From: Octopus vulgaris
Taxonomy: Eukaryota
Assembly (NCBI GenBank): GCA_951406725.2
Contig: OX597821.1
Location: forward strand, 52,824,001 to 52,888,000
Direction: 5' to 3'
Length of the DNA stretch: 64,000 bases
Part shown: positions 1 to 57,825 of the stretch, one piece after another
Position numbering within the stretch: the stretch's first letter is position 1
Layout: every line of letters starts with the position of its first letter
The notes under the pieces: generated by a model
The model's database searches: none
What the model was told of the DNA's origin: nothing
The model's input: the letters and a program-made list of their open reading frames with translations, nothing else
Made by a program: the position numbers and the translations under genes

Positions 1-875
1 ATCAATATTTTAAGATGTGCTATTATTGGATACTATTAAGAAGTAAAAACAAAACGGCTTATTCTGATTTCTGTTTTAATACGTGTGGTTCAAATATATC
101 TATTTTATTTTTAATGAAACATTACAGTATAAAAGTGAAGGAATTTTACACCACAAACACCAGTAGAAGCAGCAAAAGCAGGCTGCAGATTCTATCGAAT
201 ATAACGTCATGGTAAATTGGAAAATTATCTTGTAAACGGTAATGGGAAAATTTGAGCTTCAACTATTCCATTATTATTTATGCGTGTCGAAAGAAGTATA
301 GGAAAACGGAAAAAAAATTTTTTATCATTTATATTGAAAAGTAGGAGCAATGTTCATATAATATACATGTTTTACTATTTAAGACGATATGGCTATGAAT
401 TAGGATAGGGGGCATTATTTTCGGTTTTCTTGCTGTTTAACCTGAGGTAAATTTATGTCGAACATATCTATGATCAAAAATATTCTATCCGTGTTCATCC
501 TCACTTGTGTCTTTGTGTAGTGAACCCAGAAGCACTGTAGCTATTGACAAATACACACCATACATGACCATATATCTTTAAGAGTATGTAGAATTCCATT
601 ATCTAACGTGTCCTTTCTTTCTTTCAGACGTTAGCCAGTGAATTTTGGCAGAAAAGGTTGCTATTTCTTAAAAGGAGACCGACCACGTATAAGCTGACGC
701 TTTAGTCGATACAATTTAATAATTCAGGTGTATGTATGTGAAAACACACATATCTGCGGTATATAAATATATCTGAGAAAGGAATCTAATGATGGACAGA
801 CAGACTGACAGATGAAAAGACAGAAAAACAGAGAGACAGAGAGAGAGACACATAGATAGATAGATATATAGATAA

Positions 876-955
<80 letters not shown>

Positions 956-1081
956 CTAGATAAATAAATAGAGAGATAGATAGAGTGAGAGAGAGAGATG
1001 GCTAGCCGGATGGAGAGCGAGCGAGAGATTTAAATGAATGGGTGGATGGAGAGAGAGCGAGAGCAAAAGGCAGAGAGAGAT

Positions 1082-1136
<55 letters not shown>

Positions 1137-1466
1137 GATGGATATGCACACACTCACACTCAGTCACTGATACAAACGTTGAAGCATGTCACAAGAGTAC
1201 GTAAATTGTATTCAATGCGCCTTGTAGAGTTTATTAGAATCGAATGTTTATTACATCACTCGATATATGAGCAGCTGGTGCGATCTTCGAAAGAGAATCT
1301 TAATAACGCAACCTGACGATTATTTCGCTTGACGAAATACAGTGGTATAAAACTTGAGACCTACGTAAATTAACACAGATATCTATCTATCTATCTAGCT
1401 ATCTGTCTGTCTGTCTGTTTATCTATCTATCTACCTATTTATCTATCTACCTATCTATCTATATAG

Positions 1467-1519
<53 letters not shown>

Positions 1520-4500
1520 AATGTTTGGGATGCATCTATGTATGTAAATTTGTGTGTATGTGTGTGTGTGTGGTGTGTGTGAATAAGTATGTGTTTGTGT
1601 TTGTTTTCATTTGAGATATGTTTGCGTCAGAAGCACATCAGTCTCCCATTAAATGCTAGCTCAACATAAACTTCTAACGATTAATCTTATATTGTGACTT
1701 CTTCACGTCTTTGTGTGTAACCTTGCTCTGCTTGATCTTTGCTCTGCTTGATCCATTCGAGAGCACCAACGAAGACGGAAAGAGTAATAAATGAGTGAAA
1801 GACGAATATATAGCGCCTGTGTTTATCTTTAAAAAAAAGAAAAGAAAAAATGACCACCCCGAAATACAACAATATATGTTTCATCAGACGTCTTCACATC
1901 AGGAAACGTAAACATTCATGTTATGTTATCAAGCTACTTATGTTGATATTATTCTTTAAATTAGTCATCCTGCGAATTCGGCATTGCATTTCATCATTTC
2001 AGGATCGATAAATTAAGTACCAAAATTCCTGGCCTTTGTACCTAGAGTAGAAAATAATCTTTAGTACGTCTTGATTGAGCAACCTATAAACCAAGCGATT
2101 ACATGCATGAACATCCAGCTTCTTTAAGATCCGCGTCCATATAAGAACCTGAGAATCGTTTTTATGAGATAACAATGTGTGCTATGAAGAGGATTTAGCT
2201 GTTACTTCTAACATGCCGAATTATCCACGAGCAGATCGCTTTGTGAGTAAAGAAAAATTGTTGCTTCCGCAACAGAAACCGCTCATCCTGTTGGAATCAG
2301 ACATAGAATTGCAGGGAGGAGAAAGAATGACACCGAACACTTTAACAGTGTATTATGTTTTCTGTACATACATACAAATATACGAGTATACATAAACGTA
2401 TGCATATATGCGAGTGTGAGAGAGAGAGACAAAACGAAAAAAAGAATGAGGGCTTTTTTTTGTATGTCTTAAAATACATACATTTTTATTTTTATTTTTT
2501 ATCGTCAAGTTGGACTTTTTTTTATATATAATTAAGTATTCAGTCTTCTACACTTGTACATAAACAGGCATATATATCATATATGTGTGAGTGTATGTGT
2601 GAAAAGAAATACTTTCATATAAATTATACTTCCTCATTGACACTAATCAACACGAAATATGATATAATGCTAATAAATGTTAATGACTACGAATGCCCTC
2701 TGAGGTCTCTTTATTGGTGTATAAGTGGAGCTTTCTCACTATCTATCTCCCTCCCTCGATCTCTCTCTCTCTGCCTATTTTCCCTTATATGTTGATTCAC
2801 AAACAATAAATTATACGGTCACATCATTTTCCCCATTCTTAAACAGTTAGTCAGATGTGGTGTTAGTTTTCACAGACATATATAAACTTGAATTTAACGA
2901 TGAATATTAATGAAACTTTGATCTGAAATGCAGTTGTTTAGTTGTGTATCACAATAAGACAAATTCGACTATTGATCAAACATCTTGCAGCCGAGAATGA
3001 CTTCTGCTTTTTTAACCATTATATTAGTATTATATAGTATATTTGTTGTCCAAAAGCTATATCTTTGTTCAAAACGGTGGGTGGTATTATGACGGAGATT
3101 TTGTTGTTGCTTTATATGTCGAAAGGTTACAAAGATTTATAGTAACATCATAGCATCCTGTCTTTTACGTCCAAACATACATCTTAAGGGATTGAAGCAT
3201 GGCGTACAAGACTTAGTTATTCGGAAACCGTTAATGTTACTTAAACTTTTACTATAATTTCGTCGGTAGAAACTTTGTCTTCCACGTGGCAATGACTTTA
3301 GTTTAAGCACACGATCTCAGATCCAAACTCTTTCAATGTAATTAAATTTCCGTAAAATTTGAAAAGCGGCAGCTGTCTTGTTCCCCTTTTATGGTGTGTT
3401 GTTAATAATACAGACTTCTCCTTTGAGTCGATTGAATTCAAGACTTTATCATGAAACATTGCTAAATAATCATGTCTGTATGTAACAGTCTCTAGACCAT
3501 CTTTGAATGTAGGCACGACGGCTGCCTGTATAATATTCTTCTTTATAATCTTTGAATAACCCTAAACTTTAACTGTATACATAGCGACATTGTTTAAAAT
3601 ATTTAACTACAGTACTATATGATAAGACTGTTTCATTATCAATAGTCTGCTAGTGAGCGACCCCCTTAGTTATCAGCTAACATCTTGTTTTAAGGTGTCT
3701 CTTACTAAACCTCATGATATTGCTTATAATAAATCTCGATTTTTATGACTATACCAACTAGAATTTCTGTCTACTCTCTCAGCCCTACCCCTAACAGATA
3801 CTGCTCTCTGTTCTCTCAGCCTCAGATATATAAGGGATTTGATAAACTGGTCTTATAAATTAAAACTGGCCCCACGGAGACAAAAAATCAGTGGCAGGCA
3901 GAGTCTTCTTGATAATTTTGCTGAAGTAGAGACATGTTCTTTGTCTATATCCTTAACTTCTTGGGGATTTTAGGTATAATTATACTAATGTCTCCATCTG
4001 TTCTAATCTAATTAAATTCTACGTCTTTGTGTAGCTGAAGATTGCTCTATATTTTAAATTGATGTAATGATTGCATTGTTCAATTAAATGGAGTTACATG
4101 AAACGATCGTAATCCATTACCTCTGGATATTCTTGTTGCTTATTATATATATATATATATATACAAACACGCACACATGCACACACCACAAACAACATAC
4201 CGTATGTGCATAAAAGTTTCATGATTATGCCTGGATGTAGGCATGTTTGTCTGTGAAAATTATACAGACATGCAGAGGAAGTAACAATCGCTTGAGCAGA
4301 CCTCCACGTAGGAATGTTAGTGAAGATGAAAATTACATTCTGCACCTATGTAGTCTTGGGTTCTATCATACTATGAGGAATTTTGGATAACACCTTCTAG
4401 CATCGATTCATCCAAATATTCGTGGAAGAGTCTCAGTTGAAAAAGAAAAGAAAGACACTCATTGAATAAAAAATGACCAATTATTGTTTCATTTAACTGC

Positions 4501-4734
4501 TTCACCGGATTCTGAACCCCTTCCATGCAGATGGCTTCTGTAAGCGGTATTCAGGTGAAGTATCTGCTCAGACGGTCACTTCTGTTTTTGTCATCAGTCA
4601 TTTTGACTCTCAAACGATCATGGCCGCTGTCTTCCTCCTCCGAAGAAACTACTAATTACTGTTATGATGGAGTACTTAGCTTGCATTAACGTCTAGATGA
4701 ACATAATTTTTCAAATGGCATATGATCGATTAGC

Positions 4735-13289: not shown

Positions 13290-13804
13290 ATAATATATAT
13301 AAAAACATTAACGAAGGAAGATGCACACACTTTACATAATTTTAATATATTTTTTAATATATTTTATATTGTGTTTGTCGACCAGTTTCGCTTTCGCTAA
13401 TCATGACATTAAAATCATTTTAATTACGTATTCTATTATGATAAATTTGTTTCTCCATGTAGCATGTGGAGCTAATGAATGAATGATTTAACAAGTGTAA
13501 AAATTGAAGGGGAGGTAATTGGTGGCTGTTATGGTTGTGAACAGGGAAATAATTGCTCATCTTCGGTAGGGGGGATATAAATACACAAAAATTCAAAAGC
13601 TAGAGTAGGTGTAGAAATATATACGGTATGTAATCGTGAATTAAAATATGTATAGAGATCAAAGTTGGTTATGCGTGCATATTTAGTTGTGTTCTGTATT
13701 TTTCGGTCAATACATTTTCTTCATTTAAACGTTCTTGTGTAGAAATTATATCTTTGCGCTGGTAGAAGTAGAAAACTGTGAAATTTAGTTTGATGTTACC
13801 TGCA

Positions 13805-13848
<44 letters not shown>

Positions 13849-14975
13849 GTTAAATTAAAGTAATCCCTCTGTATTGCGGGAACAGATCTGCTCATTATGT
13901 AGAGTGGTTCTCCATCTCAACGTCATACTCATTTGTCCTTTGTATTTGTGTTCACAACCCGAGCAAGTTACTCCATAAATTAGATTCTCAGAGACACAAA
14001 TGAAGCTGGTTTTTATTGTTAATCTCTCTCCTTGTTTGAAAAGAAAATCCGAGCCTTCAAGTAGATTGGGGCATGTTCCACAGTTTGGGCGTCTACATTT
14101 TTTAACCGTTGGTTTCGTGGTGGTTGTGTAATGCTTCGCCTTTGTCAGGAGTCTCTTTGTGTTGCTTTTAGCATTTGATGAATTTATGCCTTTTCAGGAT
14201 GTTGTTCATTTTTGGGTCTCTAGTTAGTAAAGGAAGATTGTACACAGTAGTTTTGTATGCCTGATTGTTTCTAGGGTTGTAAGTTGATATATACAGTAGT
14301 GTTTTGAGATGAAGTGTGGTGTTATGTTTTGTTGTCCTCAGTGTTTTTATGTCTAATTTTTTGGCACGCTTAATTCCATCGTCTATAAGTGAGAGTGGAT
14401 ACTGTCTTTCGGTTAGTGTTGTTCTGAGTACTTGGAGACGCGGGTCCCAAGTAGTTCTTATACACTATTGTGTAAATCATTTTTGCCAAATTGAAGGGAA
14501 TATTTATTTTGATTTTTTTCGTTTACATAAAGAAACATTATTCAACGAAAAATACAGAACACGTCTAAATATGCACACATAACCAGCTTTGATCTTTATA
14601 CATATTTTTATTCAGGATCAGCTACCTACCACTGTACATATTTCTCCACATTACTCTTGCTTTTGAATTTTTGTGTAAATATATATTCCCACCACCACCA
14701 CTGAAAGATGAACAACCATATCCCCTGCCCACAATAATAACAATCACCAATTGCCTCCTCTTAGATTTTTATACTTGTTGAATCATTCATTCATAAACTT
14801 CACGCACAAAGACAAGACAAACTAATTTTTCTAAATCAAATACGTAATTAAATTATTTTAATGCCATGATGAGCGACAGCTAAACCGGTCGACAAACACG
14901 ATATAAAATATATTTTGAAATATATTAAAACTATGTAAAATGTGTGCATTTTCCTTATTTAATTTCTTATGTATA
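13290..14975 (-). mobile_element. Penelope-like retroelement remnant: RT thumb/GIY-YIG endonuclease fragment with ~440-bp inverted terminal repeats
   Basis: Minus-strand 14515-13670 reads NIPFNLAK, RQYPLSLIDDGIKRAK, STYNPRN, KCRRPNCGTC, CVSENLIYGVTCSGCEHKYKGQ..MTLRWR..LH, ERLNEE...KYRTQLN. Segments 13290-13731 and 14520-14975 are diverged reverse complements of each other. Confidence 0.88.
13376..13408 (-). ncRNA. Minimal hammerhead-like motif in the Penelope terminal repeat (mirror copy at 14862-14894, +)
   Basis: TGTC ATGATTA GC-GAAA-GC GAAAC TG GTC GACA. The location in a Penelope terminal repeat agrees with the established association of minimal hammerheads with these elements. Confidence 0.6.
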
Positions 14976-16314
14976 TTTACATATGTGTGTGTGTGTTTGT
15001 ATGTGTGTACCCACATGACAGTTTCCTTTCATTTGCCATGCATCAATTCCACTCATAGGGCTTTGGTCGGCTCAACGCTTTAGTAGAAGACACGCGACCT
15101 AGGTTCTACGTACGAACTCAGAAACACAGGGGTAGGAAGCAGAGTTCTTGCTACACAACCACACCATCGCTTATGAACTAACTTCTAATCAAGATCTTTA
15201 TTCATTCAAATCCTACATTCTTTCCTGTGGTAGAGTAATATGGAAATGCAGTTCCCTTGTTATGTGAAGCCATCATAAAAAATATTAGAGTTGTAGTTTC
15301 AGTTTTACGAGAGGATTTTCAACTCAGAATTTCCTCGCTGGTAACAAAAGAATTGAGAATATATATATACATTTTGGAATGGAAGGATTTTAATTATATT
15401 ACATTGCGTGTATTCCAGCATTACGAAGGGACAAACATCGCTTACATTATTCAGATTAATAGTCTCAAAACGCTCACTCCAATTCAATTCGACATTTCAA
15501 GCATGTAGATAAAAAAAATGCATATATTCTCATTATGTTTTGTTTTAATATGAAGAAAGTATTCATCTAGAACATTCGATTCAATAATTTTTAAACATTG
15601 AAACTATGTAGATATGCTTCAATATTTCCCTTTTTTTTAAATTTCCATTTCAATATTTCATCCTCACTTTTATTTGTTTATCGCAGTGGTGACACCCGCG
15701 GGGTTATTGAAGAATATATCAAAGAAACACGAAAGTTGGAATTGCGTAACATACCTCTTAGAAACATGGAGATATGCTGGAAAACTGAAATAGCAAAAAT
15801 CGACAATAATTTGATGTTTCTTCTACTTTCAACAACTACTGATTGTTAACATCCCTTCCTCTATACATCAGCAAAAAATATTTAAGGATTGAATACACGT
15901 ATATATGCAGTATCTCGTGAATTCAAGGATATGTATCTTTAATATATATGTAATTCATGCATACATACATGATGGAAGATACGAGAATGTTTATTGATCA
16001 CTACAATTGTTTCGATGCCTCTAGCATCGATTCCTCACGGGTGGGAGAAGACATAACTGATCTAGGTTCATCCGTGAGTGTAGATGTGTCTGCTCAGGTG
16101 ATTACAAGATGTATCTCGTTGAAATAATGTGTTTTCCGCAAGATTCCTTCTGGGTGTGTGTATACAAAAGCAACACATTAAAGGATACAACTTCATTATT
16201 ATAGAAGATCAGTACTAGATATTAGACGCAAAAAGAAACAAATACACAATACAGCGAAGAAAGTATTAGATATAACAGTTAGTAGATATGGATGTATAAA
16301 CGCCGGCGCATATG

Positions 16315-16524: not shown

Positions 16525-16609
16525 AGTTTACGAAAAAACAAAAGACGAAGACAGGTGGTGTACAAAACAAACAGATATATTAGTATAACGCTCAGGAATA
16601 GAAAAAAGT

Positions 16610-16645
16610 CTTTTACGTTTCGAGCCTACGCTCTTCTACAGAAAG
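16610..16645 (-). ncRNA. Variant minimal hammerhead-like motif within a dispersed repeat (~16520-16718)
   Basis: CTTT CTGTAGA A GAGC-GTAG-GCTC GAAAC GTA AAAG. The second copy at 57677-57712 differs at only one position. Confidence 0.55.
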
Positions 16646-17554: not shown

Positions 17555-17940
17555 GGGGACAAACACATAAACATACACAAACATACACATACATATATAT
17601 ATATATATATATACGTCGGGATTCTTTCAGTTTCCGTCTACCAAGTCTTCTCACAAGGCTTTGGTAACCCCGAGGCTATAGTAGCAGACACTTACCCAAT
17701 GAGTCATGTAGTGGGACTGAACCTGGAACCATGCGGTTGATAAGCAAGGTACTTACCACACTGCCACTCCCGCGCCTATATATATATATGCGTTTACAAC
17801 CCCGTAACTTAGCGGTTAGGCAAAAGACACCGATAGAATAAATACTAGGCTTACGAAAATAAGTCCCGGAATTGATTTACTCGACTAAAGGCGGTACTCC
17901 AGCACGGCCGCAGTCAAATGATTGAAACAATTAAAAGAAT
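17555..17940. mobile_element. SINE family A halves in opposite orientations: 5' half on minus (17555-17777), 3' half on plus (17790-17940)
   Basis: Sequence identity with the corresponding halves of 54203-54617. The halves are separated by a short (TA)n. Confidence 0.75.
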
Positions 17941-17968
17941 AATATATCTATATATATATATATATATA

Positions 17969-21684: not shown

Positions 21685-22095
21685 TTTATCTTTTCATTTA
21701 CTTATTTCAGTCCTTCGACTGCGGCCATGCTAGAGCTCCATCTTCGAGAATTCTTAATCGAATGAATCAATCTCAATACTAATTTTTTGTTAAGATTCGA
21801 CCTAACTGTTAAGTTATGACGACATATAGACACCAACACGGGTTGTCATGCGGTGGTGTGGGAAAAACACTGATACAGACACACACACACACATATACAC
21901 ATAAAACATACACATATACACAGACATAACACACACACATATACATACGTACATATATATATATATATATTTCAGTTTTCTTCTATCACAACCACTCACA
22001 AGGCATTGGTCGGTCTGAGGCTATAGTAGAAGATATTTGCTCAAATTTCCATGCAGTGGGACTCGGCCCGAAACCATATGGTTTGGAACAAAGCT
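21685..22095 (-). mobile_element. SINE family A copy
   Basis: TTTCAGTC..GACTGCGGCCATGCT, CACTCACAAGGCATTGGTCGG, CTATAGTAGAAGA, GCAGTGGGACT shared with the other copies. Confidence 0.75.
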
Positions 22096-29513: not shown

Positions 29514-30009
29514 GTGGTGGCGAAAATGTTCAGAACGGCATTGTTATCGTCAGAAAAGTAGATATAATTTTTTATCAAAGTTATTTTATATTCTATAATT
29601 TTCACAGACAATAAATACGATATTATTTGTTATTGCTTGAGATTTTGGTGTAATTTGAGAGGATAATACAAAAGTTATGGATGATTTAGGGATTTACTGC
29701 AAAACCCATAGCGGTCAAAATGATCAGAACGGTTGGAAAAATAACAAAATAATCAAAAATGACAGAGAATACTGGAATTATTTAATATTTAGTGTGAAGC
29801 CCTTTAGCTTCAATCACACTCTGACATCTTCGACTGCATGAGGAAATTAAATTTTCAATTTCTTGCTGGGTGATCTTATTCCATTCTTCCTGAAGGGCAT
29901 TCCATAATTGCTCAGTTGTTTTAGGATTTCTGGCTTTCGAACGTTCTCCTAGAATATTCCATACATTTTCAATAGGATTGAGATCTGGGCTTTGAGCAGG
30001 CCAATCCAT
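29512..30009 (-). mobile_element. Tc1-family DNA transposon right end (transposase C-terminus plus IR/DR terminal repeat)
   Basis: ORF 29782-30009 MDWPAQSPDLNPIENVW...W.KI....LISS..RRCQSVIEAKGLHTKY is the canonical Tc1 C-terminus. The terminus CAGTGGTGGCGAAAATGTTCAGAACGG abuts a (TA)n tract, and an inner copy CATAGCGGTCAAAATGATCAGAACGG lies at ~29707. Confidence 0.92.
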
Positions 30010-30048
30010 TGTCCATTATTTACACTGCGCAGTGTAAATAACGGACAA
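30009..30048. repeat. 40-bp palindrome with one mismatched pair
   Basis: TTGTCCATTATTTACACTGC|GCAGTGTAAATAACGGACAA. Confidence 0.9.
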
Positions 30049-39299: not shown

Positions 39300-39450
39300 G
39301 GAGAGGCTGTGTGATAAGAAGCGTGCTTCCCAACCACATGGTTCAGGGTTCAATCCGACTGCGTGGCACCTTGGGCAAGTATCTCCTACATATAGCCACC
39401 GCGGGCCGACCAACTGGTACACGGAAACTGAAAGAAGCCCGTCGTATTTC

Positions 39451-39487
<37 letters not shown>

Positions 39488-39670
39488 TTGTCGCCTACCT
39501 TCACTTGACAACCGATGTTCGTGTGTTTACGTCCCCGTAACTTACCAGTTCGGTAACAGAAACTGACAGATTATGTTCTAGGCTTACAATGAATGAGTCC
39601 TGCGGTCGAATTATTCGACAAAAGGCAGTGCTCTAGCATGGCTGCAGTAAAATGACTAAAAGAAACAAAG
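39300..39670 (+). mobile_element. SINE family A copy
   Basis: GGCTGTGTGATAAGAAGC, GGGTTCAATCC, GGCACCTTGGGCAAG, ACGGAAACTGAAAGAAGCCCGTCG, GTCCCCGTAACTT, GCATGGCTGCAG. Confidence 0.8.
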
Positions 39671-39836
39671 GAATAACTAACACCCCTAATGTCGAAGATA
39701 TACATTCCTAATGTACTAAGTTACTTATTGAATTAGTAGCGGTGGCAGTTGTCTCTACTGTATGATTCGGTACGCATATATGCATTAATGCAAATATACA
39801 CGTATACAGTTTGCATTCATACATATACACATACAT

Positions 39837-40739: not shown

Positions 40740-41225
40740 GGTAAGTATTTCGTAAAGAACCCGTTCGTACTTCGGTGTGAAATTATTTTTTCCACAGATT
40801 TTTTCGAGTGCATTCAACGTATCTCACCTCGAAACCCACCGCAAGTCACTTCCTTCTGAAAAAGAAAGTGGAGAGTGTTGTGGGGATCTTAGAGTTTTCC
40901 ACCGACAGAGTTTTGTTTCGTGAGTTCTTTTCTCTTTTCCAAGTTATTTCGCATGCTTCCAACGAATGTGACATCGAAATCACGTGTAAACGGTTCCTTT
41001 CATCAGAAAAGGAAAGAATTGGCTGCTACCTCTTGCACGTCCTGCTACCACGAAACAGTTATTTCGGGTCCTTTACCACAAATATCTGTTACGTGGTTGC
41101 AGGGCGTGCTAAGAATTGCAGCCAAATCTTTGGAGGCGAGATTCATTGAATGTACTCGAAAAACTCCTGTGGAAAAAATTATTTCACACCGAAGTTATGA
41201 ACAGATCTTTTACGAAATATTTACC
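40740..41225. repeat. ~490-bp imperfect fold-back element
   Basis: GTAAGTATTTCGTAAAG...ACTTCGGTGTGAAATTATTTTTTCCACAG...TTTTCGAGTGCATTCAA is reverse-complementary to 41145-41225. Inner pairs include TGTTTCGTG/CACGAAACA. Confidence 0.8.
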
Positions 41226-42153: not shown

Positions 42154-42221
<68 letters not shown>

Positions 42222-42225
<4 letters not shown>

Positions 42226-42602
42226 AAGAGTTATAGAATGGAGTAGATCAAATCCGAGCTACATTTGTTTCATTGCGAGTGGATCCTTGGAAATGGGAAA
42301 TATCTAAGCGAGGTGTATAAAGCAGACTACTCTTCAGGCCAAGGGTATCTTGATTAAATGGAGCTTACATAGACGTTAGGAGACCCATGTTAACACACGG
42401 AGGATTCGATCAGAATGCGTGATCAAATCCTCCATGAGATAACATGGGCTTCTGAACGATAAAGTAAACTGTATTTAATCAAGATACTGTTGGCCTGAAG
42501 ACTAGTCTGCAGTATACACCTTGCTTGTTTATTTACTTTCGAGGTTCCGCTCGCTATGAAACATATCTAGCCCGGATTTTATCTACTCCATAACACTTGG
42601 AT
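42222..42602. repeat. ~380-bp fold-back palindrome with ~190-bp arms and a 7-nt loop at 42413-42419
   Basis: Paired words: ATCCAAGAGTTAT/ATAACACTTGGAT, TGGAGTAGAT/ATCTACTCCA, TCTTCAGGCCAA/TTGGCCTGAAGA, GTATCTTGATTAAAT/ATTTAATCAAGATAC, CCCATGTTA/TAACATGGG, GGAGGATT/AATCCTCC. Confidence 0.92.
42257..42340 (-). ncRNA. Type I hammerhead-like motif in the left palindrome arm (mirror copy at 42492-42572, +)
   Basis: GGC CTGAAGA GTAGT-(long loop)-GCAAT GAAAC AAAT GTA GCT. Mirror copy: GGC CTGAAGA CTAGT...GCTAT GAAAC ATAT CTA GCC. Confidence 0.6.
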
Positions 42603-42821
42603 TTATATTTGCATACCTGGCAACTGAGGCTGCCTACCATGAAATATAATTTTTTTCCATCTTATCGTACTTCGATACGGAAGAAATACACAACATTCTG
42701 CCTCAATGAACCATTATTGTTTCCGAAAGTTGTTTTTTTTTAAATATTTTCTACGGATTATTTGAAATCACCTCCTTCCTGCACTTCGATCCTTGGAGGT
42801 CTATCTCTCTCTCTTAATTTC

Positions 42822-42886
<65 letters not shown>

Positions 42887-47235: not shown

Positions 47236-47597
47236 CAGGCGTGGTTTCCCAACCACATGGTTCCAGGTTCAGTCCTACTGTGTCACAGCTTGAGCATGTG
47301 TCTTCTACTATAGCTTCGGGTAGACCGGAGCCTTGAAAGCGGATTTAGTAGACGGAAGCTAAAAGAAGCCCGTCATGTGAGTGTTTGTGTGTCTATGTTT
47401 GTCCCCCACCACTGCCATACAAACGGTGTTGGTGTGTTTACGTCCCAGTAACATAGTGGTTCGGTAAAGAGACTGGTAGGGTAGCTACCAGGCATAACAG
47501 AGAAATAGTTACTGGGGTCGAGGCATTCGGCTAAAAATTCCTCAAGGCGGTGCCTCAGGATGGCCGCAGACTAATGACTGAAACGAATAAAAGATAA
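47236..47597 (+). mobile_element. SINE family A copy
   Basis: CCAACCACATGGTTCCAGGTTCAGTCC ... GTCTTCTACTATAGC ... GTTTACGTCCC ... ATGGCCGCAG ... ATGACTGAAAC, homologous to 54203-54617. Confidence 0.8.
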
Positions 47598-50538: not shown

Positions 50539-50554
50539 GTGTGTGTGTGTAAAC

Positions 50555-50708
50555 AGTAAAAGAGTCAAAAGGAAGAGTAAGTACGGTTAGGCAGCTTTTT
50601 AATCGCTACAAAAGTTTCGATACACACAGATCCTCGTATATACAGGATTTAATGTCAAGATTACAAAGCTGCCTAACCGTACTTACGTTTCCTTTAGACT
50701 ATTTTACT
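50555..50708. repeat. 50-bp inverted repeat with a 54-bp spacer, probably a Penelope-type terminal-repeat remnant
   Basis: GTAAGTACGGTTAGGCAGCTTT / AAAGCTGCCTAACCGTACTTAC is a perfect 22-bp core. The spacer carries TCGAAAC-TTTT-GTA-GCGAT on the minus strand. Confidence 0.8.
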
Positions 50709-51930
50709 TTTTAATTTTTACTTTCACACACGAGGAATACCTAAGACTAGAATCGGTAGCATACCATAAGAATAAGGATACTACCGGCTATTTGGGAATT
50801 CTAAGGGTGAACGAGCTGTATTTGTACTCTTATACGTTCTTAACAGAACACACCTCAACTATATATAAACACATACACACTAGCAGGAAAAGGTATGCAC
50901 AGGAGTGATTATAATCATAATTAAATGAACGTGGAAAAGTACTAGACAAGAAGTAGCAGCTTAAAAATTATTACAACTGAAGATGGAATTAGTATTTAAA
51001 TGCTGTTTTTAAGAGGATTTCGCATGAAGAATAATTAAAGAGTAAACGAGTGTATGCTTGGGTAACATGTTAGTAATATGCTTACAATTTAAAGTGGCCA
51101 TTTTCTTTCACACTTCCAACTACGCTGAGTCTCAGAAAAAGAAATTAAATATTTTTCACTTTTGGCTTGGTTGGTCATACTCTATAGAAAACATAAATGT
51201 TGAGGTGGGAGTCATATGCTGGGGTTCCAGAGATTCACGGGCATAAATTCTTAATCCCTTTTCTGCAGTGAAAAAAAAAATTTCACTTTTTAGTAAAGGG
51301 AAGGTACAGCTCGCTAAAATCGCCATAACATTCAGCTCTCATTATTTCTGAACTGACAGAATCCTGCTGTTACAGGGCAAATTTAGATGTACCGGCTTAT
51401 ATTTCTCAATATCAGCTCAGCTATATTTAGAAAGTACGAGAAGAATGAAGCTGAGCATGTTTAACTTTTCAGAGACAGGCTACGTCTCCATCATATATGT
51501 GTATTTTATCGTTCCCCAGTTATATACCATATTTTATTTTACAAAGTGTTAGAATGGGGAAGTTCTATGTAAAATGAACTTCACAAAGATAATATAAAGT
51601 TGCGTTATGCTTTTACGTATGAATGAATCTAAAAGCAACTTATTTTAAATTCTAACTACAGCTACAGAAATTTTAAGCTTCAATTCTTTTTAACCTTTAC
51701 TTTTACAGGTTCAGTTTATTAAAAAAAATTACAACACATGCCAGCAATTTTTTCTGCTGGTCCACAATTTTATAGGCAAGGCATTCTTTTTTTCAGCCAA
51801 GAGAATATTTGCGATTGATAAAAAATTCTAAAGTACACGCATATACATGTTTCAAATACATATATGTATAGCAACCCATGCATCTATAAAAGTACGTACG
51901 CATACACGTCACGCACAGATAAACGTTTGT

Positions 51931-54202: not shown

Positions 54203-54617
54203 TACTCTTACTCTTTTACTCTTTTACTTGTTTCAGTCATTTGACTGCGGCCATGCTGGAGCACCACCTTTTAGTCGACCCCGGGACTTATTCTTTGTAA
54301 GCCCAGTACTTATTCTATCGGTCTCTTTTTGCCGAACCGCTAAGTGACGGGGACGTAAACACACCAGCATCGGTTGTCAATCAATGCTTGGGGGACAAAC
54401 ACAGACACACAAACACATACACACACATATATATATATATATATACATATATACGACAGGCTTCTTTCAGTTTCCGTCTACCAAATCCACTCACAAGGCA
54501 TTGGTCGGCCCGGGGCTATAGCAGAAGACACTTGCCCAAGATGTCACGCAGTGGAACTGAACCCGGAACCATGTGGTTGGTTAGCAAGCTACTTACCACA
54601 CAGCCACTCCTGCGCCT
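54203..54617 (-). mobile_element. Near full-length tRNA-derived SINE (family A)
   Basis: Head AGGCGCAGGAGTGGCTGTGTGG (A box) and GGTTCAGTTCC (B box), internal (TA)/(TG) tract, and (AAGAGTA)n tail. Many homologues occur in the window. Confidence 0.85.
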
Positions 54618-54621
54618 ATAA

Positions 54622-57676: not shown

Positions 57677-57712
57677 CTTTCTGTTGAAGAGCGTAGGCTC
57701 GAAACGTAAAAG
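57677..57712 (+). ncRNA. Variant minimal hammerhead-like motif within a dispersed repeat (~57615-57810)
   Basis: CTTT CTGTTGA A GAGC-GTAG-GCTC GAAAC GTA AAAG. Confidence 0.55.
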
Positions 57713-57825
57713 AATTTTTCCATTTCTACCGAGCATTACACTAATACACCTGCTTCTTCCTACACCTTTCATCGTCTCATCATCTTTTGTTTTCTGCAAA
57801 TCTGAACTATATATATTTACATGCA

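Follow-up and report, generated by a model that had tools for sequence, protein, structure and literature searches.

Dual minimal hammerheads on opposite strands, 100–700 bp apart, have been described in Penelope-like elements (PLEs), together with low activity and a dimer model; the descriptor used in that work allows a helix II of 3–7 bp and a loop of 3–10 nt (PMC4209133). For PLE insertions, a 5'-truncated copy in inverted orientation at the 5' end has been reported, as has a bias towards (TA)n (PMC8557442). Hydra-clade motifs in File S2 of the same paper have a U ahead of GAAA, one consensus there bears a motif on both strands, and 'half core' cases with 35–50 nt spacing are noted for Naiads. 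The head-to-head arrangement is the commonest one in PMC3846280, where self-priming is proposed, and in the sections of PMC3846280 and PMC8557442 considered here the route by which the inverted copy forms is left open. Biochemical aspects reported for the group include AT-rich cleavage, a protein-assisted hammerhead, and hammerhead cleavage that is dispensable for insertion in vitro (PMC11167929).

Here we describe a 381-bp imperfect palindrome at positions 42222–42602 of a 64,000-nucleotide stretch of Octopus vulgaris contig OX597821.1, a piece of microsatellite-rich animal DNA referred to below as the window. The locus consists of two decayed, 5'-truncated copies of a hammerhead-bearing repeat, placed head to head and flanked by (TA)n tracts; they are likely the remains of an old Penelope-like insertion, which is likely inactive today. 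The insertion pattern is one already described for PLEs, and the long helix II is the one unusual trait. We infer membership in the Penelope-like class from architecture and motif, as no reverse transcriptase was linked to this family. The parts of the insertion, and the only host gene found in the window, are as follows.

42155..42223, no strand: (TA)n microsatellite read from the sequence, the likely target site, next to the left copy at its 3' end
42222..42419, minus strand: left copy, a 5'-truncated repeat reading outward, placed by arm alignment and by family contigs reaching 42411–42419
42257..42340, minus strand: left decayed type I hammerhead-like motif, from alignment, folding and simulation
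42340–42338 and 42337–42331, minus strand: 5' strand of helix I and first core half (CTGAAGA) of the left motif, with a 59-nt helix II domain
42271–42267 and 42262–42260, minus strand: GAAAC and GUA triplet of the left motif
42419..42420, no strand: point at which the two truncated 5' ends meet head to head, with a 7-nt offset, from folding and contig depth
42420..42780, plus strand: right copy, a 5'-truncated repeat reading outward, its right end approximate, from contig depth and joints
42492..42572, plus strand: right decayed type I hammerhead-like motif, from sequence and folding
42495–42501, plus strand: first core half (CTGAAGA) of the right motif, with a 56-nt helix II domain that has C at 10.1
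42558–42562 and 42567–42569, plus strand: GAAAC and CUA triplet of the right motif
42828..42883, no strand: (TA)n microsatellite past the right copy, read from the sequence
∼62806–62091, minus strand: natriuretic-peptide-receptor-like coding exon ending at a GT donor

A fold-back with a 7-nt loop had been proposed for this locus in a preliminary description made from the letters alone, and folding bears it out. The segment 42200–42630 has a folding energy of −222.7 kcal/mol (z −20.25), none of 100 shuffled sequences was equally stable, and the hairpin itself reaches −215 and −212 kcal/mol on its two strands, with the loop at 42413–42419. The fold-back had also been called near-complete, a term that here stands for ∼80% of the bases being paired. 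In the arm alignment, 148 columns are identical, 35 are mismatched and 9 contain a gap, equivalent to a Jukes-Cantor distance of 0.22, and the longest helices free of interruptions measure 17 and 15 bp. Contigs from three of the four public runs examined span the centre of the palindrome (42385–42564 in runs X1 and X4, with 0 and 2 differences, and 42212–42552 in run X2), so an assembly artefact is ruled out. The four runs were drawn from 24 listed, and the locus was found in runs carrying three organism labels.

Both arms belong to a dispersed repeat family. At a placement threshold of at least 80% likeness, a level at which joints in repeats can be spurious, 1839, 1012, 1911 and 161 contigs were placed on the locus in the four runs (1,012–1,911 per DNA run). 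Summed depth in X1 is highest on the two hammerhead halves, at 22,081 and 36,524 against 12–29 for contigs of the locus itself, and suggests family copies on the order of a thousand, with the proviso that depth is not a copy number. Within the window, neither blastn nor nhmmer detected a second copy. In run X9, which we guess to be RNA, many family copies occur at similar low depth, and the run is uninformative on transcription. Two motif scans of viral contigs gave no match (0 and 0), and two of metagenome contigs gave 0 and 4 matches, the four being GC-rich and unlike the element. Our literature searches turned up no account of this family or its long helix II; Repbase or Dfam may list it.

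The behaviour of the family contigs defines the layout of the insertion. They track the left arm, enter the 7-nt loop as far as 42411–42419 and then depart, and depth in X1 falls from 968 at 42401–42421 to 44 at 42422–42442; the loop is itself family sequence and part of the left copy. Most joints scored as lying on opposite strands are read as single-direction copies split across the two arms, and these were left out of the counts. In a separate set of 17 joints, of which 12 are listed, nine connect the left arm to the right arm or its flank, at six different junctions, and the other three run from the right motif into the flank. Joints of this last kind (42585 to 42651, 42591 to 42690), together with loose contig ends at 42591 and 42738, indicate that the family extends ∼180 bp past 42602, the position at which the element had been thought to end. 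Family depth in X1 is 500–4700 over 42611–42757, and the right copy accordingly overshoots the palindrome by ∼180 bp. The six differing junctions also contradict the idea that other palindromic copies share one centre. Taken with the overshoot, they show a pair of 5'-truncated copies that meet at their 5' ends, and an adjacent inverted copy, 5' truncation and a variable junction are all traits of PLE insertions. An AT-rich or microsatellite target is another, and (TA)n tracts lie at both flanks (42155–42223 and 42828–42883); no target-site duplication is readable within them.

Two further observations concern the family at large. The head-to-head junction joining 42401 to 42457 is present at ∼4–8 times single-locus depth in the three DNA runs, so some fold-back units may recur or have been multiplied. 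In addition, the family majority letters at 42657 and 42660 turn a poly-T stretch (42650–42660) into a splice-acceptor-like site on the plus strand; an intron may be present in the family, downstream of its hammerhead.

Compared with the EN+ Penelope-like insertions of PMC3846280 and PMC8557442, the locus shows the same head-to-head truncated pair with 3' ends outward and one side longer, the same (TA)n target, and a hammerhead motif near the 3' end. It differs in having no coding remnant and in its overshoot of ∼180 bp, where a tail of 30–40 bp is described in the portions of those papers compared.

The type I core order CUGANGA ... GAAA ... NUH is present in both arms, and the opposite polarity of the core halves, already noted from the letters, is confirmed on the two strands. 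Among 3000 simulated stretches of 260 nt, 0.27% contained exact cores together with a 3-bp helix I, and none combined these with a 4-bp helix II. The motifs share the CUGANGA and GAAA cores, the 3-bp helix I and the palindromic helix III and loop 3 of minimal type I PLE hammerheads, and they lie ∼160 bp apart on opposite strands as the dual motifs do (PMC4209133). The differences from that set are the spacing of the core halves (59 nt here, against ∼24 allowed by its descriptor), a G-U at 10.1–11.1 in the family, and the absence of the extra base after the first core half. Because the long helix II exceeds the descriptor (loop 2 of at most 10 nt), the family would be missed by it. Hydra-clade hammerheads such as those of Penelope-13_HM and Hydra-1_Obim also combine a (TA)n target, a frequent U before GAAA and a palindromic helix III, and Penelope-13_HM has a motif listed on both strands, as here (PMC8557442 File S2). 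Loops 2 in that clade are 3–10 nt, the Hydra-1_Obim motif is a different sequence, and in the part of File S2 compared, long loops 2 (29–35 nt) are listed only for plant PLE-X1 elements.

Neither arm is predicted to fold as a hammerhead any longer. The pair probabilities of helices I and II are 0.0 in each real arm folded alone, and likewise in the full hairpin on either strand, with majority letters included. The right arm has C-U at 10.1–11.1 and a C-C within helix III, and the helix II domains of the left and right arms reach only −2.0 and −10.0 kcal/mol. Searches against Rfam gave no hammerhead match for the element up to E 10 (five weak matches, none of them a hammerhead); over the whole window, there were 181 matches up to E 1, the best 150 of which are microsatellite-driven and of microRNA type. 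When the 18 listed majority letters of the left arm, and only those, are substituted, the 59-nt helix II domain folds into a single hairpin of −20.1 kcal/mol (z −3.4 against 500 shuffles). Helix II then has a pair probability of ∼0.5 and helix I of ∼0.3, and in the competing fold the 3' strand of helix II pairs across the cleavage site.

The majority calls draw on the 40 variant positions listed among 206, which do not include 42567 and 42262 (position 16.2). With these calls, helix II regains G at 10.1 (42502) as well as its fifth (42506 and 42326) and third (42274) pairs, helix I regains its third pair (42257), and loop III becomes palindromic again (42265). Position 11.1 is U in both arms and is unchanged among the positions listed, which gives a G-U and not a G10.1-C11.1 pair. 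In the stem II derived earlier by combining the two arms, the fifth pair is to be corrected: it is G-C in the family majority, where U-G had been read.

The differences between the arms are those of independent decay. Of the 24 listed sites at which an arm differs from the majority, its counterpart agrees with the majority at 20, shows a gap or a third letter at three, and carries the same change at one; we infer from the shared change that a common template for the two arms would fit. The mismatches comprise 10 G-U and 5 A-C on the plus strand (P = 0.30), and 20 of the 35 are transversions, so neither strand is favoured as RNA. Differences between organisms are not consistently fewer in the hairpin than beyond it (10/342 against 5/258 in X2; 5/320 against 8/270 in X4). 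The arms have probably drifted independently since insertion, and both motifs have decayed. With a distance of 0.11 per arm, the insertion would be roughly 30 million years old, provided that a calibration in which 0.09 corresponds to 25 and 0.2 to 56 million years (PMC13282606) holds here.

The layout can be accounted for by a single insertion event. An element-encoded endonuclease would nick the AT-rich (TA)n target, target-primed reverse transcription would extend over the 3' terminal repeat and no further, and the inverted partner would arise in the same event, by self-priming or by the joining of two short cDNAs; the arms would then diverge neutrally. Since the 5' ends meet in the centre, a transcript entering from either side would make the antisense copy first and would contain a single sense motif, which starts at base 274 or 266 of 381, downstream of its antisense copy. 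With one sense motif per transcript, there would be no partner in cis for the dimeric hammerhead fold that has been proposed. Folding of the hairpin on either strand leaves none of the 11 core bases unpaired, in agreement with the earlier statement that either transcript has its sense motif masked by the antisense copy. Such masking would be a by-product of the geometry, and what is masked is already broken. A self-silencing ribozyme in the sense of a working device, as put forward in the preliminary description, is not supported: both arms are decayed and lack a hammerhead fold even alone, other copies are not palindromic around this centre, and the mismatches are without strand bias. The strong dsRNA substrate also suggested there would have unbroken helices of 17 bp at most. 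Were the intron transcribed, the hairpin could plausibly undergo editing.

The last point concerns the host context. In 201 of the 281 minus-strand frames of the window, which were scanned, no later exon of the natriuretic-peptide-receptor-like gene was found, so the hairpin likely lies within a long intron that may exceed 60 kb.

The window contains a second element that offers a comparison. At 13292–14977, two inverted arms that are 79% alike each carry a short minimal hammerhead-like motif, and a relative (P0002) of the reading frame between them has reverse transcriptase and GIY-YIG domains. Using tblastn, a frameshifted remnant of the RT-thumb and GIY-YIG regions was located on the minus strand at 14519–13672, with an inverted copy from 14520. 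This protein-confirmed Penelope-like element shares the head-to-head build of the hairpin at 42222–42602.

A corresponding protein link was sought for the family of the 381-bp hairpin. The insertion itself gave no match to a reverse transcriptase or endonuclease, a weak test given its shortness. A reading frame in the right flank resembles the start of a Penelope protein. Searches with this frame supported neither of two candidates, returned two unrelated repeat-rich proteins and matched no Pfam family. A comparison with 59 long relatives gave no signal; the relatives seem to begin inside the frame and may lack the terminal-repeat part. Naiad_Ovul, annotated 'HHR_half_core' in PMC8557442, was considered as a match and set aside, as the portion of its 3' end that was compared does not resemble the element. 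Four short words of the element are absent from the supplement text of that paper, in which line breaks and cut runs limit such a search.

Other repeats were recorded along the window. One, with two dispersed copies (16535–16645 and 57677–57793) that are 77% alike and lie beside (TA)n, has a minimal hammerhead-like motif with one mismatch in the first core half. Another imperfect fold-back occupies 40740–41225, ∼1 kb to the left of the hairpin (arms 40740–40834 and 41129–41225, inner palindrome 41013–41131), and a 164-bp imperfect palindrome (76%) adjoins a microsatellite at 50550–50713; motif scans found hammerhead cores in neither. A DDE_3 transposase fragment is present on the minus strand at 29785–30015 (Pfam E 9.7e-07), and a dispersed family of ∼400 bp, SINE-like in size, includes copies at 54208–54620, 39300–39676, 47249–47594 and 17613–17942, among others.

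Several other origins can be weighed against the Penelope-like reading. A non-autonomous hammerhead retroelement, such as a non-LTR retrozyme, could have borrowed Penelope enzymes without having a coding parent of its own. The family has no protein link and is of type I topology, and it resembles animal non-LTR retrozymes in being a non-coding animal repeat family with such a hammerhead (PMC7229834; 10.64898/2026.07.22.740005); moreover, the terminal repeats of Penelope elements have been put forward as the source of animal retrozymes (10.64898/2026.07.22.740005). The units of retrozymes follow one another head to tail in tandem (PMC7229834), whereas here there is one truncated copy in each orientation, inverted and with no head-to-tail tandem seen at the locus. 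The window contains no further copy, and among the 15 joints listed from a total of 136 there is no return to the start of a unit, which makes a retrozyme origin improbable. A fold-back DNA transposon of MITE-like type, with long terminal inverted repeats, insertion at TA and hammerhead words that are incidental, would be in keeping with the TA-rich left flank, the long inverted arms and the lack of an Rfam hammerhead hit. Such an element has fixed paired termini, and here family sequence passes 42602, so the ends of the palindrome are not the ends of the element; the centres differ among copies, and the majority letters restore a structured helix II. We give this origin very little credence.

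The remaining two alternatives attach significance to the hairpin RNA itself. Were the locus retained as a functional hairpin, as a source of small RNAs, a substrate for A-to-I editing or an intronic ribozyme silencer, its great stability on both strands, its presence under three organism labels and its likely intronic position would all be understandable. The predominance of transversions among the mismatches, the lack of a G-U bias, a divergence not consistently below that of neighbouring sequence in X2 and X4, and a longest unbroken helix of 17 bp speak against retention, for which we see only a slim chance. Viroid-like circular RNAs have a comparable size, a rod-like fold and motifs in opposite polarities, and an integrated copy of one, with ribozymes in both polarities, would look much like the palindrome. 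The arms are two copies of one dispersed genomic repeat, where such an RNA would be a unique rod; family contigs mostly run along one arm only, the junctions vary, the right copy exceeds the rod, and the scans of viral contigs were empty; such an origin is exceedingly remote. An inverted Penelope-type duplication, as first suggested from the letters, is the best reading of the 5'-truncated head-to-head copies, the (TA)n flanks, the varying junctions and the hammerhead restored by the family majority.

As a textbook insertion remnant, the locus itself is of little consequence. The family to which it belongs has wider implications, because a high-copy family that the descriptor misses means that counts of genomic hammerheads may be low. 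Its many short head-to-head junctions offer material on how inverted copies form, by self-priming or from two cDNAs. A more ambitious model of the parent family, which we consider rather unlikely, would have it encode a working and as yet unlisted hammerhead with a branched-out helix II of 59 nt and a built-in off switch, in which the 3' strand of helix II pairs instead across the cleavage site in roughly half of the folding ensemble, with around a thousand or more copies that escape the descriptor. If this model of a working long-helix-II hammerhead is true, head-to-head insertion would automatically shield the introns of the host.
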